In this document: positions 819 through 50,952 of the stretch, piece after piece
Layout of the letters: every line of letters starts with the position of its first letter
Numbering within the stretch: the stretch's first letter is position 1
Origin: Bacteroidota bacterium
GTDB lineage: Bacteria > Bacteroidota > Bacteroidia > Bacteroidales > ML635J-15
Assembly: GCA_051747965.1 (NCBI GenBank)
Contig: JBNJGS010000001.1
Coordinates: 40,311 to 104,310 of the forward strand
Length of the DNA stretch: 64,000 nucleotides
Direction of reading: 5' to 3'
Made by a program: the position numbers and the translations under genes
The notes under the pieces: model-generated
What the model saw: only the letters and a program-made list of their open reading frames with translations
The model's database searches: none
Told to the model about the DNA's origin: nothing

Positions 819-1412
819 ATGTTTAATGAAAACATAGAAAAAAGAACTGCCCATGCCGGGTGGATAGAGGTAATTGCCGGGTCAATGTTTTCGGGAAAGA
901 CCGAAGAATTGATTCGCCGATTGCGCAGGGCCCAGTATGCACGGCAAAAAATTGAGATATTCAAGCCCGGTGTGGATGTACGATACTCCCGTGAGGAGGT
1001 TGTTTCTCACAATGACGCAAGTATTCACAGTACCCCGGTAACATCCTCCTCCAACATTCTGCTGCTCTCAGAAGATGTTGATGTGGTTGGAATTGACGAG
1101 GCCCAGTTTTTTGACGACGGACTTCCTGATGTATGTTCCAGGCTTGCTGAAAAAGGGATCAGGGTAATTGTGGCCGGACTTGACATGGATTTCAAAGGCA
1201 GGCCTTTCGGCCCCATGCCTGCTCTGTTTGCCATTGCCGAAGAGGTTACCAAGGTTCATGCCATTTGCCTCAGGTGCGGAGATCTGGCACAATTCTCCTA
1301 CCGCAAAGTGCAGTCGCAGGAAAAAGTTCTTCTGGGTGAAACCGATTCTTATGAGCCTTTGTGCAGAAATTGTTACATTGAGGCCATGAAAAATGACAAA
1401 CAATCAGAATGA
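819..1412 (+). CDS. tdk: thymidine kinase
   Basis: 197 aa. It has the P-loop [15 protein letters not shown], the DEAQFF motif and a C-terminal Zn-ribbon Cys pair (CLRCG...CRNC), all typical of Tdk. There is a 4-nt ATGA overlap with the next gene. Confidence 0.9.
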
Positions 1413-3862
1413 GATACAGCACCAAATCTGTTCAACATATTTGTCAGGCCGAATTGCATGGTCCCGGAGATATCATCTGCGAACACATTCTTACCGACAG
1501 CAGGAGTCTGATTAATCCAGGTACATGCCTGTTTTTTGCCATCCCCGGTCTTCAGTATGACGGTCATGATTTTATTGATGATCTCTATAAGGCTGGGGTC
1601 AGGGCTTTTGTAACAGAAAAGTTGCCCTCACTCCTCCACAAGGATGCAGCTTATCTACACTGCAATGAGGTTGTGGACTGTCTGCAACAGCTGATGGCAC
1701 ATCATCGCTCCAATTTTGTCATACCGGTTGCAGCCATTACCGGAAGCAACGGAAAAACCATTGTTAAAGAGTGGTTCGCACAGATATTATCAAAAGATCG
1801 CAAGGTCTGTCGCAGTCCGAAATCCTATAATTCTCAAATCGGAGTACCTTTATCCCTGGCTTTACTTGATGAGTCTGACCAAACCGCTGTGTTTGAGGCC
1901 GGCATTTCCAGACCTGATGAGATGGAGAAGCTGGAAAAAATCATCCGCCCGGATATAGCTTTGCTTACAAATCTGGGGGAAGCCCACCAGGAAAACTTTG
2001 AGAGCCCTGAAAATAAACTCAGAGAAAAACTTTGCTTATTTAACAATTGCACTACGGCTATTCTGCCCTTTGATGACCCGAAAATTCCTGAAGTCTGGAA
2101 ATCACTTTATCCTGCTTTTCAGGGAAAACTGATAAGCTGGGCTTTTAATAATCCCGAAGCTGAGTTTCAGGTAGCTTGTGATACCGGAAAATCTTCCAGT
2201 AAAATTCACATTGTATCCGAAAAACTGAGTCTGACATTCGACATTCCCTTTATAGACAGGGCTTCCGGAGAAAATGCTGTCAGCACAGCCCTCTTGCTGC
2301 ATGCCTGTGGGCTTGACAAGCAATTCATCGAACAGAACATGCCTGGTTTGCAGCCTGTGGCCATGCGTCTGGAATTAAAACACGGGATTCACGACTGTAC
2401 CATCATAAACGACAGCTACAATGCCGACATCAATGCTTTACGAATCGCCATTGATTTTGCCGAAAGACAAAACAAGCAGGGCATTGTACTCATTCTATCC
2501 GATATTCTGGAATCAGGTATGGATAAGAATACACTGTACAAAGAGATTGCCAGCCTGATCAATGCCAATGAAAGAATAGAGATGTTTGTTGGTGTGGGAC
2601 GTGATCTAACGGACAGTGCTGCATATTTTTCAGATGATGCCAGATTTTTTCCTTCCACACAGGCATTTCTGGATTCAGGCCTTTGGCACTCATTCAGGAA
2701 TCAAAGCATTTTGCTTAAAGGTGCGAGGCCATTTCGGTTTGAAAACATCAGCAGTGTACTGGAGCTCAAAGCTCATCAGACTTTGCTTGAAATCAAACTG
2801 GAGGCTGTAACACATAACCTTCGCTATTTCAGGAGCCGTCTGAATCCGGGTGTAAAAATGATGGTCATGGTTAAAGCGTTTTCTTATGGCAGTGGTTCGG
2901 TAGAGATTGGGCGTCATTTACAGAACCAGGCGGTTGACTATCTGGGCGTAGCCATTGCCGACGAAGGTGTTGAGCTGAGAAAGGCCGGGGTACACATTCC
3001 CATCATTGTCATGAACCCGCAGCCCGGTAGTTTTGATTTACTATATGAATACAAATTGGAACCTGAAGTGTACAGCCTTGCTATGCTGCAGTCCCTGACC
3101 GCTCATATTCACAGGCAGGGAATCCCCTCTCTTGCCATACATCTCAAACTTGATACCGGCATGCACAGGCTGGGTATAGGGGAAGATGAACTATCTGCCT
3201 GCCTGGAACACCTGAAAAACACGGGAAGTCTGCATGTGAAATCCGCATTTTCACATCTTGCCGGCAGTGATGTGCCTTCCCTGGATGATTTTACAGAAAA
3301 GCAGATTGCATGCTTTCACCGCATGTATGCAAAACTGCAGGACAGCCTGGGGACAAGTCCGCTGCGGCATATAGCCAACACCAATGGCATCATACGTTTT
3401 CCGGGGGCACAACTGGATATGGTACGTCTGGGAATCGGCTTGTATGGCATCAGTGCTGAAGAAAATGAACATCTGGAAAAAACAACGGTCTTCAGAACCA
3501 AAATCATCAGCATCAAACATCTGGAAAAAGGTGAAAGCGTTGGCTACAACAGGGCCGGCATTATCAGCAGGGCATCAGACATTGCGCTTATCCCGGTGGG
3601 TTATGCTGATGGACTCAATCGCAAGCTAGGCAATGGAAAGTGGAAAGTGGAAATCAACAACAGGCTCTACCCCACCATTGGAGATGTGTGCATGGATATG
3701 TGCATGCTGGACATAACAGGCTCTGACATACGGGAAGGAGATGATGCTATCATTTTTGGCGGCATGCAACAGGTGGAGGATATGGCTGAGCAATTGGAAA
3801 CCATACCTTATGAAATATTAACTGGCATATCTCAACGCGTAAAACGAGTATATTTATTATAG
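1409..3862 (+). CDS. bifunctional UDP-N-acetylmuramoyl-tripeptide--D-alanyl-D-alanine ligase (MurF) / alanine racemase (Alr)
   Basis: 817 aa. The N-terminal half is Mur ligase-like (ITGSNGKT P-loop, DSYNAD). The C-terminal half is alanine racemase-like (PLP lysine context [26 protein letters not shown]). Confidence 0.88.
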
Positions 3863-6803: not shown

Positions 6804-6832
6804 AAAAAAAGCCCGGCATTTTATTGCCAGGC
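6804..6832 (-). terminator. rho-independent terminator after ugd (read on minus strand)
   Basis: The hairpin GCCCGGCA...TGCCAGGC is imperfect. The plus-strand A-run at 6804-6810 is a T-run on the minus strand. Confidence 0.5.
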
Positions 6833-6857
6833 TATCTTGATTGATATTGTTTGAACT

Positions 6858-8177
6858 TTACTTGCCTGTACGGCGGCCGATACCATAATAATCATAACCA
6901 CGGTCGAGCAATTCCTTTGGGTCGTATATATTACGTCCGTCAAAAATCACTTTACCTTTCATGGCATCCAGGCGTGTATAATCAAGCACACGGAATTCTG
7001 TCCATTCTGTTACCAGCAAAAGCCCATCGGCATCATTTACAGCATCGTAGGCGCGGTCAACATACCCGATTTTATCACCCACACGGCGTTTACACTCATC
7101 CATAGCCACAGGGTCATAGCCAACAATGGTAGCACCGGCTTTTGTAAACATATCAATGAGGGTGAGTGCCGGAGCCTCTCTCATATCATCAGTATTGGGT
7201 TTAAAGGAAAGCCCCCACATGGCAAATTTCTTACCTTTCAGGTCACCATAGTATGCTTTGGCCTTATGGAAAAGGGTTTCTTTTTGTCTGTCATTCACCG
7301 CTTCCACGGATTTCAGAATATCCAGGCTGTAATCATTCTGATCTGCAGTTTTGATCACTGCTTTCACATCTTTGGGAAAACAGGAACCGCCATAACCTGT
7401 TCCGGCATAAATAAAATATTTACCAATCCGGCGGTCTGAACCAATGCCTCTTCGAACAGAATTGATATCGGCGCCAACTTTTTCACAGAAGTTTGCCATA
7501 TCATTCATGAAACTGATTTTTGTTGCCAGCATTGCATTGGCAGCATATTTTGTAAGCTCTGCAGAAGGAATATCCATAAATATTACCGGGTGACCGTTCA
7601 GCACAAAAGGCTTATAAAGGCGGTTCATGGTTTCTTCGGCCCGTTTGGAATCAGTACCCACAACAATTCTGTCGGGATGCATGGCATCATTGATGGCATC
7701 GCCCTCTTTAAGGAATTCAGGGTTGGAGGCCACATCAAAAGGAATATCAGCACCACGTTTGTCAAGCTCTTCTTTTACAGCTTTACGCACCTTTTCGGCC
7801 GTACCAATGGGCACTGTACTTTTTGTGATAATCAGGAGATAATCCTGCATGTTATGACCAGCTTCACGTGCCACATCCAAAACATACTGAAGATCTGCGC
7901 TTCCATCTTCATCAGGCGGTGTGCCCACGGCAATAAACAAAGCCTCTGCATCTTTTATCCCATCTTTCAGACTGGTGGTAAACGTGAGTCTGTTTTTCTC
8001 AACATTGCGTTTTACCATGGTTTCCAGTCCGGGTTCCCAGATCGGAATAATGCCATTGTTTAAATTTTCAATTTTCTCTTTGTTGTTATCCACACAGGCA
8101 ACATTCACTCCGACTTCTGAGAAACATGTTCCTGAAACCAGACCGACATAACCGGTACCTACCATTGTAATTTTCAT
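6858..8177 (-). CDS. ugd: UDP-glucose 6-dehydrogenase
   Basis: 439 aa. It has the NAD fold MKITMVGTGYVGLVSG, the catalytic GGSCFPKD motif and the UDPG/MGDP dehydrogenase C-terminal region. Confidence 0.9.
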   Translation of the reverse strand: MKITMVGTGYVGLVSGTCFSEVGVNVACVDNNKEKIENLNNGIIPIWEPGLETMVKRNVEKNRLTFTTSLKDGIKDAEALFIAVGTPPDEDGSADLQYVLDVAREAGHNMQDYLLIITKSTVPIGTAEKVRKAVKEELDKRGADIPFDVASNPEFLKEGDAINDAMHPDRIVVGTDSKRAEETMNRLYKPFVLNGHPVIFMDIPSAELTKYAANAMLATKISFMNDMANFCEKVGADINSVRRGIGSDRRIGKYFIYAGTGYGGSCFPKDVKAVIKTADQNDYSLDILKSVEAVNDRQKETLFHKAKAYYGDLKGKKFAMWGLSFKPNTDDMREAPALTLIDMFTKAGATIVGYDPVAMDECKRRVGDKIGYVDRAYDAVNDADGLLLVTEWTEFRVLDYTRLDAMKGKVIFDGRNIYDPKELLDRGYDYYGIGRRTGK

Positions 8178-8211: not shown

Positions 8212-9117
8212 TTAAAAAATCAGTTCATTTATTGCATGTATATCTCCAGAGATATTTTCATTTATGCTATCGATATTATCAGATGTCCGGATTCTCTTCT
8301 GAAAAGCCAGGGTATAGATTTCTCCATGATTGAGCGTTTTGTCTTCATCCAGAGATAAAAGATACAGATGCGGCCGATTCTCTTCCCGGCTAACCACAGC
8401 CATTGCCCGGCAATTATTTTCCATGACACTTACAGCATAGGTGCCGTCCGGAGGGATGAGTTTCTCTTCTTCCTCCATTTCAACTGCATGAAAACCCTGC
8501 TTTTTTTTCAAGGGACTGATGTCAGCCTTACCTGTTTTACCCATGACAAGATAAAAATGATCCAGATATGCATTGGCCCGTTGTATATGACCCTCTGCCA
8601 GGGCTTTTCGGATACGTGTTGAACTCACAGCTTCATTTTCGATATCCTGCATGGGTATTTCTTCCACCATAAAATTCTTCGTTTTACTCAATTCATGCAA
8701 ATAATCAAAATTCCCTTCGCGATTATGACCAAAGTAATGATTGAACCCAACGATAATAATTTTTGCATTCAGTTTTCCAAGAAGTATATCGTTGACAAAT
8801 TGTTGTGATGTTGTTTGTGAAAAAGACAGGGTAAACGGGATAATAAAGAGATGATCGATTCCTGTGTTTTCCAGGAGATATTTTTTTTCCCGTTGGGTAT
8901 TGATAAGTTTCAGATCAGCCATTTTATCAGGGAAAAGCACTTTACGCGGATGCGGGTGAAATGTAATCAGAACAGATTCGCCTCTGACCTGTCTGGCTAG
9001 TTGATTCAGTCTGTTCAGAATTGTTTTGTGTCCAATATGAACTCCGTCAAAGGTACCGGTGGTAACAACCGGATTTTTTATTGTGCCAATATCTTCAAAA
9101 TCTGTATGTATCTTCAT
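8212..9117 (-). CDS. ribF: RibF-family FAD synthetase; the C-terminal riboflavin-kinase-like module is divergent
   Basis: 301 aa. The N-terminal FMN adenylyltransferase motifs are intact (GTFDGVHIGH, SSTRIR). The C-terminal module aligns to RFK (GTYAV), but GFHAVE replaces the GFPTAN motif. Confidence 0.8.
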   Translation of the reverse strand: MKIHTDFEDIGTIKNPVVTTGTFDGVHIGHKTILNRLNQLARQVRGESVLITFHPHPRKVLFPDKMADLKLINTQREKKYLLENTGIDHLFIIPFTLSFSQTTSQQFVNDILLGKLNAKIIIVGFNHYFGHNREGNFDYLHELSKTKNFMVEEIPMQDIENEAVSSTRIRKALAEGHIQRANAYLDHFYLVMGKTGKADISPLKKKQGFHAVEMEEEEKLIPPDGTYAVSVMENNCRAMAVVSREENRPHLYLLSLDEDKTLNHGEIYTLAFQKRIRTSDNIDSINENISGDIHAINELIF

Positions 9118-9145: not shown

Positions 9146-9766
9146 CTAATCATTGTGATTGACAAAATAAGCAACTTTTTCCATGCTGGTCACCATATCA
9201 TAATCCTCCACATAAATATGGTCGGGGATGCTAAGCGGAACAGATGTAAAATTCAGTATTCCCTTGATATTGTTTACCACGAGCTGATCGGCTACTTCCT
9301 GTGCATGTTCCGGTGACAATGTCATGATGGCAATGGAAATATCAAGTTCTTTGATCTTTTCTCCAAGTTGGTTGATATGATAGCACCGCACATTGGAGAT
9401 TACCCTGTTGATCTTTTGTTCATCCACATCAAAAGCAGCGGCAATATCAAGTTTGGTGCGTTTGCCGTTAAAGTAGCTGGTGATGGCTTTGCCGAGGTTT
9501 CCCATTCCTATGATTGCTGTATTGATCTTTTTGTTGCCGTCAAGGATTTCGCCAATGCGCTGAATCAGGTCTTCAATAACATAACCTTTTCGTTGAGTTC
9601 CTGAATATCCGATAAGCATGATGTCCCGCCTTACCTGTACCGGTGTAAGGTGCAACTGACTGGCAAGTTCATGCGAGTAAATATGTTCCTTGCCCTTGTC
9701 CAGGTTGCTATAGAGAATGCGTCTGTACTGGCTTAGCCTTTCAACGGATTTTGGTGGTAAATTCAT
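9146..9766 (-). CDS. rex: redox-sensing transcriptional repressor Rex
   Basis: 206 aa. It has an N-terminal winged helix (RLSQYRRIL...SHELASQL) followed by the Rossmann motif IIGMGNLGKAI and ILNFT, which is the Rex family layout. Confidence 0.9.
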   Translation of the reverse strand: MNLPPKSVERLSQYRRILYSNLDKGKEHIYSHELASQLHLTPVQVRRDIMLIGYSGTQRKGYVIEDLIQRIGEILDGNKKINTAIIGMGNLGKAITSYFNGKRTKLDIAAAFDVDEQKINRVISNVRCYHINQLGEKIKELDISIAIMTLSPEHAQEVADQLVVNNIKGILNFTSVPLSIPDHIYVEDYDMVTSMEKVAYFVNHND

Positions 9767-9777
9767 GGTTTCTCAAT

Positions 9778-10896
9778 TTATTTTTTAAAAATAATATAAA
9801 AAGTTGAGCCTTCATCCTTTTTACTTTCCAAATGTATGCTGGCTTTATAGTTGTCAATGATTCTTTTTACAATTGAAAGGCCCAGGCCACTGCCGGAAAT
9901 CTTTTTTGTTTCTTCATTCCGGATACGAACAAACTCCCTGAAAAGCCTTGCCTGGTCATCCTCAGAAATGCCAATTCCTGTATCTTTAACAACAATATGA
10001 ATTTCATGTTCGGTCTGGTAAAGAGAAATGTTCACATTTCCTTCTTTTTTGTTGTATTTGATGGCATTGGAAATAAGGTTATTGAGTACGATTTCCATTT
10101 CTTCCCGGTCGGCGTTCATTTCCAGCTTTTCAGGAAGATCTTTTTGAATGCTGATATCTTTTTGGATGGCATATGGCTGCATGGTAGCGATGGCATCCTC
10201 AACCACTTCAGGGAGATTGATTTTCTCAATGCTTCTTTGTTTTTTCCCTGATTCAAGTTTTGTCAGGTCGAGCAGATCCATGATAAGATTTCGCATATTA
10301 TCCATTCTGTCGAGTGATCGGTTGACCATCTGCATATAATCATTGATGTCATTGCCTGCCTCTTTGTTTTTCATCATCTGCAGATATCCTTCCACTGCAT
10401 TGATTGGTGCTTTCAGCTCATGCGACAGAAGCGACAGAAACTGATAGCGGATTTGCTTTCCCTCTTTGTTCATGCGGGCAGTCATTCGTTTGAGAAACAA
10501 TTGCTTGGCCACATTTTCCAGGGAAGCCCTCAGCTCCTGTGGGGTAAATGGTTTTGGGACAAAGTCGCTGGCCCCTTGCCTGGTGGCTTTTACTGCCACT
10601 TCAAGTGAAGCATAAGATGTAATCATCACCACATAGGATTCAATTTGCTGCTTATTGATGTAATTGAGTACATCCAGGCCCTGAATTCCGGGCAACTTAT
10701 TGTCCAGCAGCACAATATCCGGTGTTTCTTTCTTCAGGATTTCCAGGGCTTCCTCCCCGGTAGCCGCTTCATTCACAGTAAATCCAAACACATCATCCAT
10801 GAAAGGATAATCCAGGGTAAATTTTCTGAGAACACGCTTTACTCCAGCGCGAATCCCGGGTTCATCATCCACAACCAATATTGTAAATTTTTCCAT
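9778..10896 (-). CDS. hybrid receiver-histidine kinase (N-terminal REC, then HisKA + HATPase)
   Basis: 372 aa. The REC domain shows ILVVDDEPGIR...IVLLDNKLPG...VPKPF. The H-box is LSLLSHELKAPINAV, and the G-boxes are DTGIGIS and GSGLGLSIV. Confidence 0.85.
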   Translation of the reverse strand: MEKFTILVVDDEPGIRAGVKRVLRKFTLDYPFMDDVFGFTVNEAATGEEALEILKKETPDIVLLDNKLPGIQGLDVLNYINKQQIESYVVMITSYASLEVAVKATRQGASDFVPKPFTPQELRASLENVAKQLFLKRMTARMNKEGKQIRYQFLSLLSHELKAPINAVEGYLQMMKNKEAGNDINDYMQMVNRSLDRMDNMRNLIMDLLDLTKLESGKKQRSIEKINLPEVVEDAIATMQPYAIQKDISIQKDLPEKLEMNADREEMEIVLNNLISNAIKYNKKEGNVNISLYQTEHEIHIVVKDTGIGISEDDQARLFREFVRIRNEETKKISGSGLGLSIVKRIIDNYKASIHLESKKDEGSTFYIIFKK

Positions 10897-10898
10897 AA

Positions 10899-11291
10899 CT
10901 ATGTAAGGAGTTTGTTGATGACTGAATACAATCTTTCTGTTTCTATACCTTTTTCAAGGTAGGCATCTGCCTTTATCCAGGCCTGATCCTGTTGTTCCTG
11001 AAGTCTGAATGAAATGCCTGTTTCTGCCGCCACGTTGGTAGCAATAACAACAGGGACATCGGGATACCTTGATTTACAACGAAAAGCCAGAACAAATCCG
11101 CTGTCATCGTTTTCCATCATAAGGTCAAAAATGGCCAGATCCGGCCTGACCTGCTTCAGGATGTTCTCGGCTTCTTTCTGACTCTCAGCCGTGATAAGCT
11201 CAAATCCGCTTTTTTCAAGTTTGAATGATGTCTGAAACAAATAATCAGTATCATCATCAGCCAGCAGAATTATTTTCTTTGTTTTCTCCAT
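10899..11291 (-). CDS. stand-alone response-regulator receiver protein (no output domain)
   Basis: 130 aa. It has ILLADDDTD and the phospho-acceptor context LAIFDLMM. No DNA-binding or enzymatic domain follows. Confidence 0.85.
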   Translation of the reverse strand: MEKTKKIILLADDDTDYLFQTSFKLEKSGFELITAESQKEAENILKQVRPDLAIFDLMMENDDSGFVLAFRCKSRYPDVPVVIATNVAAETGISFRLQEQQDQAWIKADAYLEKGIETERLYSVINKLLT

Positions 11292-11296
11292 ATTTT

Positions 11297-13294
11297 TTAT
11301 CCCTCAACTTTTGGATGCCTGGGCAAATCAACTGTAAATGTGGTTCCTGTTTCACCATCGGCGGGATTATCATTGCTTACCAGGGTGATTTTGCCCTTGT
11401 GCATCTTAATAATTCCATAAGTGGTAGGCAAACCCAGACCGGTTCCTTTGCCAATGCCTTTGGTGGTGAAAAAGGGGGTGAATATTTTTTCCCTGATTTC
11501 TTCCGGGATGCCACTGCCTTCATCTGTTATTTCAATTCGTATATTTTCTTCATCACCATTGATGTTAATGTGTATATCACCACCCTCCGGCATAGCTTCC
11601 GTTCCGTTTTTAATCAGATTTGTCAGTGCTTGTATCATCTGTTCTTCATCCAGATAAACCTGAGTATTGTTCAGGTGGTTATGAATTTTTATTCTGACCT
11701 TGTCAGGTATGATAAATGACCTGATGCTTTTCTGTATCAGATCGGTAATGCTTACATTGCTTTGCCTGACCTGATTTTTTCTGGCAAAATTCAGCAGATT
11801 GCCAACAATTTTTTTGCAGCGGGAGGCCTGATCTGCGATCATTTTATAATCTTCATACGCCTCGCTGTTTTCATCAACCTCATCCAGCAGCATATTGCTG
11901 TACATAATAACCACACCCAGGGGATTATTGAGCTCATGGGCTATGCCTGCTGACAACTGACCAAGATGGGCAAGTTTTTCCGACTGTTTGAGCGCCTGTT
12001 GAATGGAAGACAATTTTTCATTTTTTTGATGCAACTCATCAATGGACCGATGCATTTTTTCTATGGTGTAGGGCAAACACATGTCAATTTCTGCAAGGCC
12101 GCGCAAGACCGCAACGGCATGTTCCTCGCAACTGTCGTAACCACAAGCCTGACAATTGAGTCTGTCTTCCGGTTCATTCTTGCCCATTGCCGACCACAAT
12201 GCATATATTTCTTCATTATCGGGCATTTTCACCCGCTGATCATCCGGTGTAAACGTTCTGGTTAGGTCCAGATCCTTAAATCTGTGTATGTATTTCTCCC
12301 AGCTTTTTTGGTCAAGATTGTTCATTTTTTCCTTGACATAGCGGGTAATATGTGCCCTGTTTTCATAGCGCTTTCCGTTTCTGGACATTCCGGGTCCCAT
12401 AATGCAGCCTTCACAGCAAAGCAGCTCCAGGTGATGATCGTTAATCAGGCCATAATCAAATTCCTGTATGGCATCCTTAAAATTCACCCTGCCTTCTGCC
12501 ACCACAATATTTCCTTTAAACAGATTTTCGTGGACATTAATGGTTTGGATGATGCCTCTGCTAATGGGAAAAATGGAACCGCGTCCACCAAAAGGCGGGT
12601 CAAATTCGCTGGCTTTGGTATTTTCAGGTTTGATTTCCTGTGCTTCCAGCATTTCCCTGAATTCTGAAAAAGTCAGGACAGCATCCACTTCATCAGACTC
12701 TTCTTTTTTTGCAACACAGGGACCGATAAAAACAAGTTTGTATTTTTCTCCGTACATTTCTTTCAGCGCTCTTGCCAGAGCCATAACAGGAGACACTACA
12801 GGAGCAAGATTTTCTGTCAGATGGGGATGATATTTTTTGATAAAGTTGACAATTGAGGGACAGTCAGAACTGATGAATCGTCTCTCATCATCAGAAGTCA
12901 GCAAATCTTTGTAACGCAAAGCAACCAGATCTGCACCAAATGAAACCTCGGTAACCATGTCAAACCCCAGTTTTCTTGTCATACCGACAAATTTCCGGTA
13001 ATCGTTGATTTCAGGAAAATCGGCAGGAAAACTTGGTGCCACCATAGCAATAACCGGTTCATGTCGTATGAGCAATTTTTCAGCCATGCTTTCAGATTTC
13101 CTGAAATTTTTGGCTTTTCTGGTACACACACGGATGCAGTTTCCGCAGCCAATGCATCTGTCCTGTATCACTTCTGCCTGACCATTGATGATACGTATTG
13201 CTTTGGCAGGACATTCCCTGACACAGGTGTAACACATTTTACATCTGTCTTTGATGGTGTATACCAGGGGCTTATCTGTCAACAATTCACTCAT
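11297..13294 (-). CDS. HydS-type sensory [FeFe]-hydrogenase-like protein fused to a histidine kinase
   Basis: 665 aa. It starts with two [4Fe-4S] motifs ([23 protein letters not shown]). The H-domain has L1 SSDCPS, L2 GPCVAKKEE and L3 [13 protein letters not shown]. Next comes an exact Cx2Cx4Cx16C motif ([26 protein letters not shown]), then a coiled coil, then HisKA ([12 protein letters not shown]) and HATPase (GTGLGLP). Confidence 0.85.
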
Positions 13295-14970
13295 AGTACA
13301 TTAAATTTATGTTTCAGGTCAGGCTTATCATCCCGTTGAATGTAAGCATTGGCAAAAGGATTGGCCTGCGGTGATTTGGCCTGGGTATTGTCGTCTGATT
13401 TGTAAAGGCTTTTGATCAGCATTTTGGTACGGTTTTCCGTTCTCTCAGAAAGGGGTTGTCCGCCCCCGCCCATGCATCCCAGACTGCAGTTTGACAACTC
13501 CAGGATATCGCAATTGGCTCTGCCCCTGAGAACGTCAAGAATATGCTTTTCAATATTGTGTATACCACTGACAACCTTTGTTTTATATGTTTTTGATCCG
13601 ATTTTGAAGCTGGCTGTTTTTTCCTGCTTCATTACCCGAAGGTCCGGGATTTTATGACGTATCGGCTCTTTGCCCGTTTTCAGGAAATGCATATGTCTGA
13701 AAATCGCCTCGCTCAGTCCTCCGGGCACATGATAGAGACTACCTGAAGCACTGGAGACATGGTAAGGCTGATCAAACCGTTCTTCGTCAATATTGTGGAG
13801 ATCAACACCGGACAATTTCAGCAGGCGCAACAACTCCCGTGTTGTCAGCACTGCATCCACATCCGGGATACCCCTTGTCATATTGTCTGTTCTGGTTGCC
13901 TCTGCTTTTCCGGCTGTACAGGGTGTTACTGAAACGGTAAATGTATCTTCCTGTCTCAATTCTTCTTTTTCGGCATAATCTGTTTTGATAAGCTTGCCCA
14001 GAATTTGCTGCGGGGTCTTCACCGGATTGATAAAAGACAAGGCTTCAGGCATAAATTGCTCCAGGTAATTCACAATGGAGGGGCATGAGCTAATGATGAC
14101 CGGAGACTTTCCGGTTTCGCTGATGTGCCGGGCAGTTTCCATAACAAAAACATCACCTGCGAAGGCAGAATCAAAGACAAAATCAAACCCTGCCTGTTTC
14201 AATCCTGAGATCACAAGGGGAGTGATGTCTGTTCCGGGCTTGAATCCGGCAGCTTCTGCAAGAGTATAACCAATGGCCGGTGCAAGCTGAGCATATATTG
14301 TAATGTTCTTATTGTTGATGGCATCCATCACCGGTGTGATAGCAGATTTCTCTGTAAGTGCACCACTGGGGCAAACAAGTATGCATTGTCCACATGAAAT
14401 GCAGGTGGAGTAATTCAATCCTTTTCCCAGGGCAGTATCAATCCTGGTATTGATGCCTCTGCCTGAAAAATCTATGGATGATGCCTGCACACGCTCATCG
14501 CAAACGCGTATACATCTGCCGCAGAGGATACACTTTGCATTGTCCATGACTATGGCCGGACTGGATTTGTCTTTGTATTGTGATTTTTTGGTTCCGAAAA
14601 ATCGTCTGTCCATAATATTGAGCTCCACAGCAAGGTTCTGTAATTCACAATGCTGATTGTTTTCACAATAAAGACAATCGTCGGGATGATTGGCAAGTAA
14701 AAGTTCCACAATGGTTTTGCGCGCATTGATAACCCGCGGGGAATGGGTAAAGACCTCCATACCTTCTTCAACGGGCTGTGAACAGGAGGGCACCAATTCA
14801 TCACGACCGGAAATTTCGACCACACAAAGTCTGCATGAACCTGTGGGTGTAAATTCATTCAGGTGACAGAGGGTTGGCACTCTGATACCATGTCTTTTCA
14901 GAGCGACGAGAATGGTTTCGCCCTTTTTTCCCTCGAGTTGTTTATTATTTACGTTGAAAAGAATGCTCAT
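13291..14970 (-). CDS. hydA: [FeFe]-hydrogenase large subunit, HydA-like (M3 architecture) with a non-canonical H-cluster pocket
   Basis: 559 aa. It carries a [2Fe-2S] set (C35, C46, C49, C63), a His-ligated cluster (HPDDCLYCENNQHC) and two [4Fe-4S] motifs (CILCGRCIRVC, CISCGQCILVCP). The H-domain has L1 IISSCPS, L2 TPCTAGKAE and L3 ELSNCSLGCMGGGGQP. Confidence 0.85.
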   Translation of the reverse strand: MSILFNVNNKQLEGKKGETILVALKRHGIRVPTLCHLNEFTPTGSCRLCVVEISGRDELVPSCSQPVEEGMEVFTHSPRVINARKTIVELLLANHPDDCLYCENNQHCELQNLAVELNIMDRRFFGTKKSQYKDKSSPAIVMDNAKCILCGRCIRVCDERVQASSIDFSGRGINTRIDTALGKGLNYSTCISCGQCILVCPSGALTEKSAITPVMDAINNKNITIYAQLAPAIGYTLAEAAGFKPGTDITPLVISGLKQAGFDFVFDSAFAGDVFVMETARHISETGKSPVIISSCPSIVNYLEQFMPEALSFINPVKTPQQILGKLIKTDYAEKEELRQEDTFTVSVTPCTAGKAEATRTDNMTRGIPDVDAVLTTRELLRLLKLSGVDLHNIDEERFDQPYHVSSASGSLYHVPGGLSEAIFRHMHFLKTGKEPIRHKIPDLRVMKQEKTASFKIGSKTYKTKVVSGIHNIEKHILDVLRGRANCDILELSNCSLGCMGGGGQPLSERTENRTKMLIKSLYKSDDNTQAKSPQANPFANAYIQRDDKPDLKHKFNVL

Positions 14971-14975
14971 GGTAT

Positions 14976-16907
14976 CTAATCTGTCTTGATCGCGTTAAAC
15001 TTACAATTATCATAACACAGTCCGCAGCCTATGCACTTTTCCTTAACAATAAAGTACGGATGTCTGGCCACCCCGATGATAGCATCAGCAGGGCACTTGC
15101 GTGCACAGATGGTGCAACCGGTACATAAATCCACATCTATGGTGTAGGATTTGAGTTCCTTGCATACGCCTGCTTTGCATTTGCGGTCAAAGATATGTTC
15201 CTCATATTCATTTCGAAAATGTTCAACGGTGCTCAAAACCGTATTTGCTGCATTTTGCCCCAGGCCGCAGAGGGAAGTTTCTTTCATAACTTTGGCAAGG
15301 CTTTCAAGCTGCATAACACCTTTGAACCGTTCCAGTGATTTGTGTCCGGTTTCATCATACGGCTTGCGGGTAATCCGGGTCAGGATATCAAGCATACGCT
15401 GGGAGCCTTCTCTGCAGGGAATACATTTTCCACAGGATTCCTGCTGGATAAAACGCATAAAATACCTGGCAAGGCTGATGATACAATTGCTTTCATCAAG
15501 CACAAGAAAACTTCCGCTTCCCATTTTAAGGCCGGCTTTTTCCATGGCAGCAAAATCCATGGGGATATCCAAATTGCTGGTATTTATCACACCACCTGAT
15601 GGTCCGCCAATATGGACAGCTTTTAATTCTTTATCACCGGGAACACCGCCACAGGTTTGGATTATATCACGCACTTTGGTACCCATTTCAACTTCCAGGA
15701 CGCCGGTTTTGGCAATTTTCCCGCTCACGGACAGTAGTTTTGTACCCGGACTGTTTTCTGTACCGGTTTTTTTGAATTTTTCTCCCCCCTGCCTTATAAT
15801 GTATGGCACATTGGCCAGTGTTTCCAGGTTGTTAACTACAGTGGGTTTACCAAACAGCCCTCTTTCCGCCGGATATGGTGGTTTGGGCTGAGGCATTCCC
15901 CTTTTGCCTTCCAGGCTGGCAATCAAAGCTGTTTCTTCACCACACACATGAGCCCCCGGACCTTCTTTAATGTCAATATACAACTCAAAACCACTGTTGA
16001 AAATATTATCTCCAAGCAACTCATACTCATAGGCCTGCTTCAGTGCGGTTTTCAGACGCTGTATGGCAAGTTTATACTGATTCCGGATGTAAATGATTGC
16101 CCGGTTTGCCTGTATGGCATAAGCGGCAATTGCCACACCCTCAATTACCTGGTGTGGATCACCTTCTACCAGGTGTCTGTCCACAAAAGCCCCCGGATCA
16201 CTCTCATCAGCATTACAGATGATATATCTGGAGGCTTCAGATTGTTCAAGTGCTGCCAGCCACTTGTCGCCGGTGAGATAGGCAGATCCGCTGCGCCCTT
16301 TAAGTCCAGCAGACTTAACAATCCTGCATACTTCCTCTGATGTATGGGCTGTAATTGCTTTAGCAAATGCCCGGTATCCTTCAGAAATGATGTATTCATC
16401 AATATTATCAGGAGATATTATTCCCGTTCGCCGGGTGAGATGTTTTTTCTGTGTATTGAAAAAGCTGAGATTGTTCAGGTATGGCACATCATCCCATTCC
16501 GCAAGATTAGCCTGGGGATATTGTCCCAGATTGCCGTAGTCCGGCAGGAAATTGTTTGTTACCGCATCCATCAATTCTGCCACCTTCTCTTCAGTAATTC
16601 TTGCAAAACTGATACGGGTTCTGCCGGGAATCTGCACATCAACAATGGGCTCAGCAGAACACAACCCGATGCAACCTACTTCAATAACTTCTGCATCCAG
16701 ATTTTCTTCCTTAATATGCTCAATTATCTTATTCTTTGTTTTGTCTGCACCCGCGATAACACCACAGCTTCCCATACCAACATAAATCACCGTTTTCCGG
16801 ACAAAATCCCGGCGTATGGTGGCAATGTTTCTATCCAGCACAGCATTGCCTTTCGGGGGATTGGGCCCCATAAGAAGAAGCGGGAGATGTTCTTTAATCA
16901 AATTCAT
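14976..16907 (-). CDS. hydB: NuoF-like flavoprotein subunit of trimeric hydrogenase (HydB-like)
   Basis: 643 aa. An N-terminal thioredoxin-like region has Cys (GMGSCG, VGCIGLCSAEP). The NuoF core shows CNADESDPGAF, GAHVCGEETALIASLEG, KPPYPAERGLFGKPTVVNNLET and ESCGKCIPCREG. The C-terminus has two ferredoxin motifs (CTGCTICARKCP, CIGCGLCYDNC). Confidence 0.85.
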   Translation of the reverse strand: MNLIKEHLPLLLMGPNPPKGNAVLDRNIATIRRDFVRKTVIYVGMGSCGVIAGADKTKNKIIEHIKEENLDAEVIEVGCIGLCSAEPIVDVQIPGRTRISFARITEEKVAELMDAVTNNFLPDYGNLGQYPQANLAEWDDVPYLNNLSFFNTQKKHLTRRTGIISPDNIDEYIISEGYRAFAKAITAHTSEEVCRIVKSAGLKGRSGSAYLTGDKWLAALEQSEASRYIICNADESDPGAFVDRHLVEGDPHQVIEGVAIAAYAIQANRAIIYIRNQYKLAIQRLKTALKQAYEYELLGDNIFNSGFELYIDIKEGPGAHVCGEETALIASLEGKRGMPQPKPPYPAERGLFGKPTVVNNLETLANVPYIIRQGGEKFKKTGTENSPGTKLLSVSGKIAKTGVLEVEMGTKVRDIIQTCGGVPGDKELKAVHIGGPSGGVINTSNLDIPMDFAAMEKAGLKMGSGSFLVLDESNCIISLARYFMRFIQQESCGKCIPCREGSQRMLDILTRITRKPYDETGHKSLERFKGVMQLESLAKVMKETSLCGLGQNAANTVLSTVEHFRNEYEEHIFDRKCKAGVCKELKSYTIDVDLCTGCTICARKCPADAIIGVARHPYFIVKEKCIGCGLCYDNCKFNAIKTD

Positions 16908-16916
16908 AGGCTGTGC

Positions 16917-17375
16917 TTATTTGTTGTTTAATGTCTTGATTATCTGGTCAAGTTTTTGTTTGCTCAGGCGTGTATGGTAAGTATCATTGACCTGAATAAC
17001 AGGCGCCAGCGCACAGGCTCCCAGGCAACTCACCTCTTCAATGCTGATTTTTCCGTTTTTGGATACGCCGTTATCCATGATATTCAATTTGGAAATGAGC
17101 GTATCACGCAGGCTGTCCGCTCCCATCACATGACAGGCTGAACCAGCACACATGCGGATATGAACAGGGGCATTTTCACGAAACCTGAACTGATTATAAA
17201 AAGTAGCAATGCCATATATCCGGCTTCCCGGAATACTGAGAGCCTTTGTTATTTCCCTGATGTGCTCTTCAGTGATGTATCCCTGCTCATTTTGCACCTC
17301 CTGTAATATCGGAATCAGGTCCTTTTGCGCCTTATCGGGATACTTATAAATAATATGTTTTATGCCTGCTGCCAT
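16917..17375 (-). CDS. hydC: NuoE-like [2Fe-2S] subunit of trimeric hydrogenase (HydC-like)
   Basis: NuoE pattern: YPDKAQKDLIPILQEVQNEQGYI, GIATFYNQF, MCAGSACHVMG and VSCLGACALAP. The track ORF begins at TTG 17414. I prefer ATG 17375 (MAAGIKHII...), because the extra 13 codons fall in AT-rich DNA that carries palindromes and a promoter-like box. Confidence 0.8.
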   Translation of the reverse strand: MAAGIKHIIYKYPDKAQKDLIPILQEVQNEQGYITEEHIREITKALSIPGSRIYGIATFYNQFRFRENAPVHIRMCAGSACHVMGADSLRDTLISKLNIMDNGVSKNGKISIEEVSCLGACALAPVIQVNDTYHTRLSKQKLDQIIKTLNNK

Positions 17376-17388
17376 CTTACTTTTTTTA

Positions 17389-17396
17389 CAAATATA
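17389..17396 (-). promoter_or_regulatory. candidate Bacteroidota -7 promoter box (TATATTTG) for the hyd operon
   Basis: The minus strand reads TATATTTG, which matches TAnnTTTG. It lies 13 nt upstream of ATG 17375. Confidence 0.4.
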
Positions 17397-17403
17397 AGAA
17401 ATA

Positions 17404-17415
17404 TTTGTTAACAAA
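17404..17415. promoter_or_regulatory. perfect 12-bp palindrome TTTGTTAACAAA (fused Rex-like half sites)
   Basis: Read directly from the sequence. It consists of overlapping TTGTTAA/TTAACAA half-site sequences with no spacer. Confidence 0.35.
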
Positions 17416-17421
17416 TAAACA

Positions 17422-17439
17422 CTGTTAAGATATTAACAA
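17422..17439. promoter_or_regulatory. candidate Rex operator
   Basis: CTGTTAAGATATTAACAA matches the TTGTTAAnnnnTTAACAA Rex box at 17 of 18 defined-plus-spacer positions, with perfect inverted arms TGTTAA/TTAACA. It lies in the hydC / sigma-factor divergent intergenic region. Confidence 0.55.
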
Positions 17440-17563
17440 GTAAAAATGCAAAAATGTTGTTCCTATACTTTTTCGCTTTTAATTAAAAATATTGCATAAA
17501 ATATTTGGATGTGTGAGAAATTGTTGTAATTTTAGGGGTAAATGAAACCATAATATTAAAAAC

Positions 17564-18061
17564 ATGACAAAACTATCAACACAGATTACAGAACATTCAG
17601 AACATTTAAAGTATTATGCTTTAAGTTTAACCAACGACAGTGAGACGGCCAATGACTTAATGCAGGAAACAATGTTTAAGGCATTGAAAAATGAGGATCG
17701 GTATGTTCACGATAAGAATCTGCGCTCATGGTTGTTCACAATAATGAAAAATACCTTCATCAATCAGTACCGAAGGGAGAAATCCAGGCAAAAAATGGTG
17801 GCAGAAGTAAAGGATGTAAGTTCATATGCTTCAGCGAAAGTAGAAAATGAGACAGGTCTTGATTTGTATGTCATGAGATCTGATATTCACAAAGCATTAT
17901 TGAAGTTGAATTCAAAATACAGAGTACCTTTCATTCTGTTTTACAAGGGTTTTAAATACACAGAAATTGCCAAAAGACTTAATCTGCCACTCGGAACAAT
18001 CAAAAGCCGCATCTATTTTGCCCGCAAAATCCTGATGGAAGAACTCTCAGGACTGATCTAG
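17564..18061 (+). CDS. ECF-type RNA polymerase sigma-70 factor
   Basis: 165 aa. Region 2 is LMQETMFKALKN...SWLFTIMKNTFINQYRR. Region 4 is FKYTEIAKRLNLPLGTIKSRIYFARKIL. No adjacent anti-sigma gene is present. Confidence 0.85.
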   Translation: MTKLSTQITEHSEHLKYYALSLTNDSETANDLMQETMFKALKNEDRYVHDKNLRSWLFTIMKNTFINQYRREKSRQKMVAEVKDVSSYASAKVENETGLDLYVMRSDIHKALLKLNSKYRVPFILFYKGFKYTEIAKRLNLPLGTIKSRIYFARKILMEELSGLI

Positions 18062-28863: not shown

Positions 28864-29796
28864 TCACTTTTTCAGTTTTCTGAGGTAGAAATTGTGTTCC
28901 CCAAAATTCAATTTCAGAAGCTTCTTGTCATTGATGAGCTGTTCCACAAGCTGCATATCTGCATTGTTCTTGTTGAGCAATTCCCGGAGTGCATCCTCAC
29001 GCATGGGATGTACCGCGGTAATACTGAGAATATCTGATTCAGCATCTCCGCTGGCGGCAAAAGCATTGCCTTCATACCCAATCAACAACTCAGCGCGTTT
29101 TACTTTTTCAGAAAACAATGCCCAGGCCGTTTGCAGGGCTTTTTCTCCGGCCGGTTTAACATCCGGATCAGCAGGCGGACGTGTGGGAATGGCGATATAT
29201 GCCACATCAGGATTTATTTCACCCAGAAAATCAGCCATCTTACGCAATTCAGCTTCCTTGTCATTGTATCCATCTATCAGCATACTTTCTGTCATAAGAT
29301 AGCCCTCATAGGCAGACGCAAAATCACGCACACCCTGTTTTACGGTTTCGAAATCCAGGTTTTTATGCGGGCGATCCACTTTACGCCACATCTCTTCTGT
29401 TGCAGCATCTACTTTGACTGATACGCGATCAGTTTTGAGCAAAGCCTTCCTCACCTGCTCATCCCACAACAATGATGCGTTGGAAATCACTGCTACGGGC
29501 ACATCCAGCTTTTTCAGGCCGGTAATCAATTCTTCCAGACGGGCATCCAGGGCAGGCTCCCCATCGGGAACGAGGGTAAGATAATCCACTTTATCAGCAG
29601 TATTAAGCCGCTCTTTCACCTGCCGGACAATATCTTCCGGGTCATAAAATGCCTCACGTTCTGTCTGCATGCGAATGGCATTCCCAAGCTGACAATATCT
29701 GCAGGCGTAGGTACATATTTTCGGCGGTATGTGGTTGATTCCAATACTTTGTCCCAGCCGCCTCGATGGAACAGGACCAAATATTATCTGAGCCAT
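28864..29796 (-). CDS. radical SAM protein (unknown substrate)
   Basis: 310 aa. The N-terminus is FGPVPSRRLGQSIGIN followed by the CX3CX2C motif (CTYACRYC). It is the last gene of a tightly packed 5-gene operon. Confidence 0.8.
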   Translation of the reverse strand: MAQIIFGPVPSRRLGQSIGINHIPPKICTYACRYCQLGNAIRMQTEREAFYDPEDIVRQVKERLNTADKVDYLTLVPDGEPALDARLEELITGLKKLDVPVAVISNASLLWDEQVRKALLKTDRVSVKVDAATEEMWRKVDRPHKNLDFETVKQGVRDFASAYEGYLMTESMLIDGYNDKEAELRKMADFLGEINPDVAYIAIPTRPPADPDVKPAGEKALQTAWALFSEKVKRAELLIGYEGNAFAASGDAESDILSITAVHPMREDALRELLNKNNADMQLVEQLINDKKLLKLNFGEHNFYLRKLKK

Positions 29797-29803
29797 AAAA
29801 CCA

Positions 29804-30118
29804 TTATTTTACTTTTTTCAGTGCTTCGCGAATGCTGATTTGTCCGACTTGAGATTTCATCTTCACCCCTGCCTGTTTCAGTACATCTGAAGCTTTGGGG
29901 CCAAAAGGACCACTGGTGACAACCATATCTGCATCTGCCTGAATCACGCTCTGTGCAGCCTGAATGCCAACACCATGTCCGGCATTTTTTTCCGTGTTCT
30001 CAATAAAATGCAGACTGTCATCAGCATCATCGTACACGACAAAACCTGCAGCCCGTCCAAAACGTTCGTCCAAAACAGCATCAAAAGATGCCTTATTTGC
30101 TGGAAATACAATTTTCAT
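29804..30118 (-). CDS. NifB/NifX-family (dinitrogenase FeMo-cofactor-binding-like) small protein
   Basis: 104 aa. ERFGRAAGFVVYD and MVVTSGPFGPKA...LKQAGVK show the typical small NifX-like fold pattern. Confidence 0.75.
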   Translation of the reverse strand: MKIVFPANKASFDAVLDERFGRAAGFVVYDDADDSLHFIENTEKNAGHGVGIQAAQSVIQADADMVVTSGPFGPKASDVLKQAGVKMKSQVGQISIREALKKVK

Positions 30119-30128
30119 AACTTTTTGT

Positions 30129-31004
30129 TTATTTTACTGTGTTTACAATATCCTGCCATATATTTTCAAAAATGGCAGTTAAATCACTGCGTCCGGTTTC
30201 CGGGACAGTCAAGCCTTCACTAACAGCCCTTGAAAATACCGGATCATATGGCAATTCCCGTGTATATCCAAGGTTGTTTTCTTCGGCAAATGCTTTGATT
30301 TTCCTGCGATAATCAGGATTAATATCTGCTTTGTTCAGAACTATCATGGCTGGAATTTCCATTTTCTGCAGCAATTCATTGACTCTTTTCATATCGTGCC
30401 AGCCGGAAGTGGTGGGTTCGGTCACCACCAATGCCATAGAAGCACCGGACATGGCAGCAATTACAGGACATCCAATCCCCGGCGGGCCATCTGTAAGGAT
30501 GATATCCCGGCCTTCCCTTTCAGCAATCACACGACTGCGGTTTTTTACTTCGGTTACCAGTTTTCCGGAATTATCTGCTCCGATGTTTAGTTTTGCGTGT
30601 ACCATAGGACTGCTTTGTCTGGTAAAAGCCTCGAACAGGATACCGGCTGCCTGGGTTTCCAGGTGCAGGGCATTGTGGGGGCAGACATGGGTACACAAAC
30701 CGCAACCTTCACATTCTATGGGATTAATTTTCAGTTCTGCATTCTCAACAGATATGGCATCAAAATGGCAATGATCAATGCAAATGCGGCAACGGATACA
30801 TTTTTCCTGATTGACAACAGCCAATTTCCCACCATAAAAAATTTCTTCTCTGGTATTGTCCGGAGCCATCAGCAAATGCATATCGGCAGCATCCACATCG
30901 GCATCCGCCAGTACAATATCATTGGCAGCAAGCCATGCCAGCCCGGCGGTTATGGATGTCTTTCCACATCCACCTTTTCCGGATATTACAACAACTTCTT
31001 TCAT
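30129..31004 (-). CDS. MinD/ParA-type P-loop ATPase with inserted 2x[4Fe-4S] ferredoxin domain
   Basis: 291 aa. It has a deviant Walker A (SGKGGCGKTS), the inserts CIRCRICIDHC and CEGCGLCTHVCP, and DGPPGIGCP. Confidence 0.85.
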   Translation of the reverse strand: MKEVVVISGKGGCGKTSITAGLAWLAANDIVLADADVDAADMHLLMAPDNTREEIFYGGKLAVVNQEKCIRCRICIDHCHFDAISVENAELKINPIECEGCGLCTHVCPHNALHLETQAAGILFEAFTRQSSPMVHAKLNIGADNSGKLVTEVKNRSRVIAEREGRDIILTDGPPGIGCPVIAAMSGASMALVVTEPTTSGWHDMKRVNELLQKMEIPAMIVLNKADINPDYRRKIKAFAEENNLGYTRELPYDPVFSRAVSEGLTVPETGRSDLTAIFENIWQDIVNTVK

Positions 31005-35035: not shown

Positions 35036-35099
35036 GTTACAAAGTTAAAATTATCCTGCATTCAAACTTATTCCTTATTTTTGAAGCAAATTAGATAGA

Positions 35100-50947: not shown

Positions 50948-50952
50948 TTATT

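Follow-up and report, generated by a model that had tools for sequence, protein, structure and literature searches.

What is the role of an operon in which the genes of an apparent trimeric [FeFe]-hydrogenase are followed by a hydrogenase-like histidine kinase, two receiver proteins and the repressor Rex? The question is raised by a locus on the minus strand of a 64,000-nucleotide (nt) stretch of a Bacteroidota genome (Bacteroidales, ML635J-15; assembly GCA_051747965.1, contig JBNJGS010000001.1, positions 40,311 to 104,310), the whole of which is called the window here and supplies the coordinates used below. Seven open reading frames (ORFs), hydC, hydB, hydA*, hydHK, REC, REC-HK and rex, span 9146-17414 with intergenic gaps of 9, 5, -4, 5, 2 and 11 nt, the negative value being an ATGA overlap at 13294-13291, inspected directly, that joins hydA* and hydHK. 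A sequence-only reading of the same DNA had described a HydABC-type hydrogenase operon with a built-in H2-sensing phosphorelay and a co-transcribed, self-repressing rex. What it observed is confirmed, since the same ORFs, concordant Pfam and NCBIfam assignments and re-derived gaps reproduce the gene order, domains and spacings; its interpretation as a whole is partly supported. We consider it reasonably probable that the locus is a conserved Bacteroidota operon in which Rex controls both a hydrogen-related redox module and its signalling proteins. Because HydA* has a sensor-type pocket, the HydCBA* module would more likely be a slow or non-catalytic redox partner than a high-turnover bifurcating hydrogenase.

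The features of the locus are collected in Table 1. Pfam and NCBIfam searches upheld the domain assignment of all seven ORFs. HydB comprises an N-terminal thioredoxin-like region followed by Complex1_51K, SLBB and NADH_4Fe-4S domains and 2x Fer4 (a C-terminal 2x[4Fe-4S] module), and HydA* combines Fer2_4, NADH-G_4Fe-4S_3 (a His-ligated 4Fe-4S domain), 2x Fer4 and Fe_hyd_lg_C in Pfam; HydC, a HydB with extra N- and C-terminal iron-sulfur (FeS) domains and an M3-type HydA are encoded together, as in group A3 HydABC. The hydC ORF is open over 16917-17414, and its true start is most likely the ATG at 17375, because this codon is kept in relatives and is used by a public gene call: in GCA_046482795.1 (contig JAWOEK010000087.1), a Bacteroidales metagenome-assembled genome (MAG) with an identical kinase, hydC is called from the same ATG. 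HydHK consists of 2x Fer4, Fe_hyd_lg_C, an FeS domain (PF04060), HisKA and HATPase_c. Rex has both expected domains (PF06971 and PF02629) and reaches 203.8 bits with NF003995, whose cutoff is 126; its residues 3-204 align over the full length with Bacillus subtilis Rex (2VT2, 1e-32), and the GxGxxG motif (IGMGNLG), the RRD helix and the FD motif are kept. A family search with the antisense ORFs within the cassette gave no match, nor did an Rfam search of the 64-kb window.

Table 1. Genes and candidate control elements of the locus, in window coordinates (aa, amino acids).
Feature	Position	Strand	Description
Candidate Rex box 1	17422..17439	-	TTGTTAATATCTTAACAG; 1 mismatch to the clostridial Rex consensus TTGTTAANNNNTTAACAA
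Candidate Rex box 2	17405..17422	-	GTGTTTATTTGTTAACAA; 2 mismatches; 17 bp downstream of box 1, one base in common
Candidate -7 element	17389..17396	-	TATATTTG; TAnnTTTG; 13 nt before ATG; kept in promoter alignment
hydC	16917..17375	-	NuoE-like [2Fe-2S] subunit, 152 aa; 2Fe-2S_thioredx PF01257, 3.6e-46
hydB	14976..16907	-	NuoF-like FMN/NADH subunit, 643 aa; Pfam and NCBIfam
hydA*	13291..14970	-	M3-type H-domain subunit, 559 aa, sensory-type pocket; Pfam, NCBIfam and alignments
hydHK	11297..13294	-	Predicted group C1-type sensory [FeFe]-hydrogenase/histidine kinase fusion, 665 aa; Pfam, NCBIfam and motifs of PMC8163306
REC	10899..11291	-	Stand-alone receiver, 130 aa; D56, T85, K114
REC-HK	9778..10896	-	Receiver-HisKA-HATPase_c hybrid, 372 aa; D65, T93, K115; H159
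rex	9146..9766	-	NADH/NAD+-sensing repressor; NCBIfam NF003995, above cutoff
ribF	8212..9117	-	FAD synthetase/riboflavin kinase; 28 nt past rex; Pfam and NCBIfam
ugd	6858..8177	-	UDP-glucose 6-dehydrogenase; 34 nt past ribF; Pfam and NCBIfam
Intrinsic terminator	6810..6833	-	9-bp stem, 6 GC pairs, T7 tail; first strong one downstream of the cassette

The linkage of hyd, kinase and rex genes across relatives, which the sequence-only reading had named as the comparison that could overturn it, proved strongly conserved when approached from either end. On the kinase side, one genome per GTDB species was scanned with the H-domain kinase, yielding 278 relatives; the neighbourhoods of the best 80, almost all in Bacteroidota MAGs, were read, and the denominators given here are the loci with enough flanking sequence. 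The kinase, REC and REC-HK genes are adjacent in 72 of 73 loci, a co-oriented hydC-hydB-hydA set precedes them in 54 of 57 (directly adjacent in 42), rex lies downstream of the cassette in 46 of 68, and ribF follows rex in 41 of 43. The rex-side survey was an independent collection, made by searching metagenome contigs with a Rex alignment: the gene immediately upstream of rex is REC-HK in 44 of 55 loci, ribF comes after rex in 48 of 56, and of the loci whose upstream sequence could be read, about 87% have this Rex subfamily next to the cassette. The stable rex-ribF pairing (L002-L076, L082-L161) may be noted beside the fact that HydB is a flavin mononucleotide (FMN) protein. The same cassette was also seen outside Bacteroidota, in a Planctomycetota MAG (L079, 1954-9014), with rex as first gene and a Rex box before it; the HydA P1 motif of this locus is TSCSP, the second and not the first Cys being replaced.

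The Rex-type operator that had been proposed upstream of the operon takes the form of two adjacent candidate boxes that are conserved in orthologous promoters. The consensus used, TTGTTAANNNNTTAACAA, is clostridial, as quoted in PMC5367854, and may not be the Bacteroidota Rex operator; at up to 2 mismatches it has 3 matches in the window, against 0.55 expected, two of them adjacent in the hydC promoter. A scan of the window with the Bacillus-type consensus TTGTGAAnnnnTTCACAA at 3 mismatches was uninformative (7 matches, 7.1 expected) and was dropped in favour of the clostridial TTGTTAA form and a scan with the core motif. Both hydC promoter boxes agree with the palindromic Rex operator TTGTGAAnnnnTTCACAA / TTGTTAAnnnnTTAACAA, and some relatives hold perfect TTGTGAAnnnnTTCACAA sites. 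The core TTGT[T/G]A-N6-T[A/C]ACAA, with at most 1 mismatch, is found in the 250 nt preceding hydC in 31 of 33 rex-linked loci, compared with 1.3% of random 250-nt windows of those loci, and the full core-motif scan showed that tandem boxes exactly 17 bp apart recur across many related loci and lineages. When the window promoter was aligned with those of four relatives (L002-L005, proteins 59-86% identical), nothing was conserved upstream of box 1, and conservation ran from box 1 to the ATG, where most positions are invariant and those that vary lie mainly in the box spacers and in the dozen bases next to the ATG; box 2 is nearly invariant in the five promoters, with one varying spacer position. 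By comparison with Bacteroides promoters, TATATTTG is a probable Bacteroidota -7 promoter element, TAnnTTTG.

Cassettes that lack a linked rex carry such boxes as well, either directly before hydC (L055, L056, L063, L066) or upstream of an extra receiver gene preceding hydC (for example L038 and L070); a claim from the first comparison that rex-less loci have no Rex boxes was dropped when the full scan found boxes in several. Because several rex-less cassettes also have boxes, control by Rex appears to be shared by cassettes of this kind in general. A box directly before rex is rare, being seen only in L015 and in L079, where rex is the first gene. Since boxes almost never front rex, self-control by rex in the window would depend on transcripts that start at the hydC promoter and run on into rex. 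A third Rex-like palindrome of the window (35026-35043, 2 mismatches) lies across the 5' end of a SpoU-type methylase gene, within the stretch that this gene shares with a divergent Omp85/BamA-like gene, and is possibly there by chance. Divergent from the hydC promoter, with about 190 nt between start codons, lies an extracytoplasmic function (ECF) sigma factor gene (17564-18061, plus strand), kept at that position only in the closest relative, L002.

How far would a transcript from this promoter extend? The sequence-only reading let the unit stop at rex, a boundary that is not upheld: ribF and ugd follow on the same strand before the terminator at 6833-6810 is reached. A scan of the minus strand for intrinsic terminators found no strong one before this and none splitting the seven genes, in keeping with the single unsplit unit that had been proposed. 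Because the only strong terminator on the strand follows ugd and the gaps are short, hydC to ugd may form a nine-gene transcription unit; ribF would probably be in the same transcript as rex, and ugd is possibly the final gene. A weak terminator-like hairpin at 11151-11133 was rejected, as it sits in the codons of the conserved RPDLAIFD receiver (phospho-acceptor) motif, and a sigma-70 promoter scan was discarded as unsuited to Bacteroidota, its result being no better than shuffles.

The claim that the structural genes encode an H2-producing HydABC enzyme is unsafe here, since four pocket residues of HydA* are replaced. The protein retains all 20 cluster-ligating cysteines, with H-cluster Cys 296, 351, 495 and 499. 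Its best structural match is the bifurcating HydA1 of Thermoanaerobacter kivui (3.5e-128), to which it is about 45% identical over the full length, followed by those of Acetobacterium woodii and Thermotoga maritima. When HydA* is aligned to T. kivui HydA1 and the hydrogenase CpI, however, C299, M353, K358 and M497 of CpI correspond to S295, T349, G354 and S493, so that the proton-relay Cys, both framing Met and the CN-binding Lys, K358, which anchors the distal CN ligand, are lost. Compared residue by residue with 8A6T, CpI and 35 canonical relatives, motifs P1 to P3 read ISSCP(SI), TPCTAGKAE and ELSNCSLGC, against the canonical TSCCPxW, MPCxxKxxE and ExMxCxxGCxxG, and depart from those of group A3; the scores lie below the NCBIfam cutoffs for group A (TIGR02512, 326.5 vs 405.95) and A6 (NF040763, 536 vs 765). 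C299, M353 and M497 separate sensory from prototypical enzymes, the sensory counterpart of M353 being Gly, Ser or Thr, and prototypical enzymes lose all or most of their activity when C299 is substituted by anything other than Asp (PMC10055695). With these substitutions, a normal bifurcating hydrogenase therefore cannot be assumed.

The altered pocket is not peculiar to the window. In a survey of 66 HydA genes beside kinase relatives, 35 are fully canonical, including that of every rex-less locus, and about 30 are variants, in which C299 has become S, T, D, E, L, N, F or I and K358 is usually lost; all variants occur in loci with a linked rex or on contigs that end before the rex position. The median gap between hydA and hydHK is about 20 nt for variant genes (-4 in the window) versus about 111 nt for canonical ones. 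A survey of Cys columns showed that the HydB of variant loci often lacks the N-terminal cluster cysteines and one further conserved Cys, and in the window HydB two Cys columns conserved in canonical relatives are substituted (T161, V440). In the HydA tree, the canonical proteins form one tight clade and the variants several long branches. The subfamily of the window HydA*, its 13 closest protein clusters at 53-97% identity, has a uniform signature ([S/T]CP, [T/G/N]PCxx[A/G]K and S/T at M497), is without the C-terminal small-subunit-like domain PF02256 and bears an NCBI name that omits 'group A'. To judge from these patterns, the variant pocket looks like a maintained alternative state, not decay.

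Sensory-type [FeFe]-hydrogenases are recognised by a lack of conservation of C299, M353 and M497 and by a C-terminal Cx2Cx4Cx16C motif (PMC8163306, PMC10055695), and HydHK appears to bear the hallmarks of this type (group C/D), subtype C1. PF02906 matches residues 80-301 (3.6e-47), reaching the profile end; C145, C193 and C297 align with CpI C300, C355 and C503, and the equivalent of C499 is C293 or C294, the CxxC/CxxxC spacing being ambiguous. CpI C299, M353 and M497 are replaced by D144, G191 and L292, and K358 and E361 are retained (K196 is the Lys). Eight Cys at 18-57 make up the N-terminal 2x[4Fe-4S] part (Fer4 families), the C-terminal cluster motif is C381-x2-C384-x4-C389-x16-C406, with PF04060, and the same polypeptide carries the kinase part, HisKA 444-507 (H453) and HATPase_c 549-659, with a predicted helical linker between the C-terminal cluster and the dimerization and histidine phosphotransfer (DHp) domain that contains H453. 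Among the 80 loci, these motifs hardly vary.

Of the proposed phosphorelay, the kinases and receivers stand and the output is missing. Aligned to CheY, REC has the acidic pocket D12-14 with D56, T85 and K114, and REC-HK has D10-11 with D65, T93 and K115, in addition to H-box H159; H-box, ATPase and receiver residues are conserved in both kinases and both receivers. The best NCBIfam matches of REC-HK are PhoR/PnpS-like, below cutoff. Neither the window nor the surroundings of any rex-linked cassette among the loci examined contain a REC protein with an output domain, and NarL-type regulators occur only beside rex-less cassettes. With no DNA-binding output in the cassette, the putative H2-sensing phosphorelay is therefore incomplete as encoded. 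The neighbours of rex-less cassettes (L038 4235-5591 and 13724-17470; L065 3177-4900) include a PAS-HisKA_3 kinase and a NarL/LuxR-type response regulator, and in these loci hydC is also preceded by an additional receiver of 165 aa, and REC-HK is followed by hydG-hydF-hydE.

Several known systems resemble parts of this arrangement. HydHK shares the N-terminal 2x[4Fe-4S] part and apparently the H-domain cluster Cys with HydDB group C1 and with the HydS proteins of T. maritima (TmHydS; group C, M2f) and Thermoanaerobacter mathranii (TamHydS; group D, M2e). C299, M353 and M497 are replaced in all of them (D, G and L in HydHK; A, G and S in TmHydS; M353 by S and M497 by L in TamHydS), and both the C-terminal Cx2Cx4Cx16C motif and the location of the gene beside a HydABC-type set are shared (PMC5037454, PMC8163306, PMC10055695, PMC7768429). 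By contrast with HydS, in which a PAS domain occupies this position, HydHK has HisKA/HATPase directly after the C-terminal cluster; it also has a proton-transfer-capable Asp at the C299 position and CxxC spacing of L3. With the bifurcating HydABC/Bfu enzymes of T. maritima, A. woodii and T. kivui (7P5H, 7Q4V, 8A6T), HydCBA* shares the three-gene architecture in the order C-B-A and all HydA FeS ligands, but P1 to P3 are non-canonical, the small-subunit-like domain is not detected and HydB has the T161 and V440 substitutions. A comparison may also be drawn with the [NiFe] system HoxBC-HoxJ-HoxA (group 2b) of Cupriavidus and Rhodobacter, where a low-activity hydrogenase module likewise reports H2 to a histidine kinase controlling hydrogenase expression. 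The metal site and protein families are nevertheless unrelated, sensor and kinase are separate there and fused here, and a response regulator, HoxA, is encoded there, whereas no output regulator is encoded here.

On the Rex side, Caldithrix abyssi has been described as having a rex-hydCBA operon with a Rex box of its own (PMC5317091), and in Caldicellulosiruptor bescii electrophoretic mobility shift assays showed Rex to repress [FeFe]-hydrogenase genes and to be autoregulated (PMC6391272). These systems have in common with the window an NADH-sensing Rex and an 18-bp palindromic operator fronting [FeFe]-hydrogenase-type genes; as rex lies inside the regulated unit, autoregulation is therefore expected. 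The window differs in that rex is the seventh gene, not first or separate, in the tandem boxes in 17-bp register, in the four-protein sensory relay within the operon and in the Bacteroidota host. Group C1 beside a bifurcating hydrogenase (Hnd) has been noted in Petrimonas mucosa (PMC7768429) and also in Hydrogenedentota, where P1-motif variation of BfuA was reported, without biochemistry (PMC11406978). The view that the combined layout is uncharacterised thus holds as regards experiments on Rex in Bacteroidota, for which literature searches returned no study among the hits listed, but has to be qualified by the related layouts in Petrimonas, Caldithrix and Caldicellulosiruptor. What appears to be new is a distal rex in a Bacteroidota operon, conserved tandem boxes and a four-protein relay without encoded output, and, most notably, the occurrence of a sensor-type HydA in a HydABC-like set.

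We propose that Rex would gate the hydC promoter by the NADH/NAD+ ratio. When NADH rises, Rex would leave the promoter and the whole unit, including rex, would be transcribed; read-through would then cap the synthesis of Rex itself, a negative autoregulation. The H-cluster of the kinase would react with H2, and the redox change could pass through the [4Fe-4S] cluster of the Cx2Cx4Cx16C motif and the helical linker to H453 of the DHp domain, the signal being either H2 or the redox state of the kinase's own clusters. Phosphate would be handed to D56 of REC and/or to REC-HK (from D65 to H159), and then to a response regulator encoded elsewhere. HydCBA* would act with the kinase as a slow or non-catalytic NADH/ferredoxin-linked redox module.

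Other explanations have to be weighed against this proposal. We judge it unlikely that HydCBA is an ordinary bifurcating [FeFe]-hydrogenase making H2 from NADH and reduced ferredoxin, which the relay and Rex merely regulate. The closest structural relatives are indeed bifurcating HydA1 proteins, HydA has its full set of FeS-cluster cysteines, HydB has its FMN/NADH and C-terminal ferredoxin modules, and HydA is fully canonical in the same position in about half of the related loci; set against this are the replacement of C299, M353, K358 (with it the distal CN ligand anchor) and M497 by S, T, G and S, the group A and A6 scores under cutoff, the subfamily's lack of PF02256 and of a 'group A' name, and the drift of HydB Cys columns in variant loci. 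The literature points both ways, as C299 replacements except Asp cripple prototypical enzymes, yet sensory-type enzymes without C299 remain slowly catalytic (PMC10055695). Quite unlikely in our estimation is the further step that HydC, HydB, HydA* and the kinase form one sensory complex reporting the balance of H2 versus the NADH/ferredoxin pools. It would suit the ATGA overlap and the consistent closeness of variant hydA genes to hydHK, and the retention in HydA* of the [4Fe-4S]H ligands and electron-transfer chain along with the loss of catalytic pocket residues; precedents are NiFe-HydABCSL, where HydA carries a plain [4Fe-4S] in place of the H-cluster and another subunit bears the catalytic site (PMC9304861), and group C3 drawn as the 'T' subunit of Bfu clusters in Hydrogenedentota (PMC11406978). 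The idea is purely inferential, and canonical hydA lies 0.1-4.6 kb from hydHK in many loci, including those with an inserted ABC transporter; with this separation a physical complex is therefore not general to the family. In its strongest form, which we hold to be improbable to the same degree, HydC-HydB-HydA* would no longer be a hydrogenase but the input stage of a four-subunit sensor, in which a Bfu-type module is wired through the degenerate H-domain to the H-cluster of the kinase, the kinase compares H2 with the NADH and ferredoxin state, and Rex gates the amount of sensor.

Two alternatives concern Rex. A minority possibility that we take seriously is that rex-ribF(-ugd) is a separate housekeeping unit, with rex on its own constitutive promoter in or after REC-HK and no autoregulatory loop. 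The very stable rex-ribF pair (41/43 and 48/56 loci) fits this, as do the REC-HK to rex gaps, which in relatives mostly measure 30-70 nt and in five of them 180-386 nt and leave room for a promoter, the Rex box directly before rex in L015, and the finding that about 1/3 of cassettes have no linked rex and yet bear Rex boxes. In the window, on the other hand, the gap is 11 nt and contains no terminator-like hairpin, the subfamily's presence beside the cassette in about 87% of readable loci is beyond chance adjacency, and Rex autoregulation is the norm where tested (PMC6391272). That the palindromes upstream of hydC are bound by another transcription factor seems highly unlikely: although Bacteroidota have no experimentally defined Rex operator and the motif is AT-rich in an AT-rich promoter, its core is the published Rex consensus (PMC6391272, PMC5367854), perfect TTGTGAAnnnnTTCACAA sites exist in some relatives, the boxes co-occur with a dedicated linked rex, and in the Planctomycetota locus L079, where rex is first, the box shifts to the front of rex.

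Some observations weigh against our preferred reading of a slow redox module and a sensory kinase under Rex control. TmHydS and TamHydS also lack C299, M353 and M497 and yet turn over H2 slowly (PMC10055695, PMC8163306); HydA* might therefore still be a working hydrogenase. No group C1 protein is known to bind H2 or to autophosphorylate, the group being described as of 'undetermined role' (PMC5037454), and the L3 motif of HydHK is spaced CxxC, not CxxxC. The maturase genes hydEFG were not found in a search covering the 64-kb window. The enrichment statistics for boxes and linkage take no account of phylogeny. Internal promoters inside coding sequence are conceivable, which keeps co-transcription of the genes presumptive, as do the wide gaps before rex in the five relatives mentioned.

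A few further features were noted around the cassette and elsewhere in the window. In L019 (6454-9973) and L073 (6463-9968), and likewise in L021, L028, L032, L035, L045 and L074, a four-gene ATP-binding cassette (ABC) transporter stands between a canonical hydA and the kinase; it consists of a PBP_like_2 binding protein (the only one of the four covered by the Pfam scan), two permease-sized genes and an ATPase-like gene, and is pstSCAB-like. Upstream of the cassette, L017 (87-5476) has a second canonical M3 HydA, a NuoE-like gene and, placed divergently, a group C3-like pair of a HydS-like protein (H-domain, Cx2Cx4Cx16C and PAS) and a SpoIIE/PP2C phosphatase; L018, L025, L033, L041, L046 and L047 are similarly arranged. 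With the cassette kinase and a HydS-like gene together, such loci therefore hold two different putative H2 sensors side by side. Within the window, a two-subunit 2-oxoacid:ferredoxin oxidoreductase (49094-51972, plus strand; POR/POR_N, then TPP_enzyme_C) likely supplies reduced ferredoxin to the hydrogenase-like complex. At 28864-31891 (minus strand), a 310-aa radical SAM protein has as neighbours two paralogous P-loop proteins of CbiA/ParA type, both interrupted by a 2x[4Fe-4S] ferredoxin domain, none of the three being HydE, HydF or HydG. Two adjacent Fe/Mn superoxide dismutase genes (53657-54445 and 54481-55110, plus strand), the first with an N-terminal extension of about 50 aa, are present in this apparent anaerobe, and a single 817-aa ORF (1409-3862, plus strand) fuses a MurF-like Mur ligase to an alanine racemase.

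The cassette bears on how fermenting bacteria sense H2, and we know of no histidine-kinase-linked [FeFe] sensor that has been studied. With 278 relatives in one scan of reference genomes, the cassette is widespread in anaerobic Bacteroidota, and since the kinase is fused directly to the presumed sensor, H2-dependent autophosphorylation offers a simple assay. The conserved tandem boxes provide a concrete candidate operator for Rex in this phylum. Given the sensor-type HydA described here, surveys that count 'group A3 bifurcating hydrogenases' in Bacteroidota may overestimate the capacity of these bacteria to produce H2.

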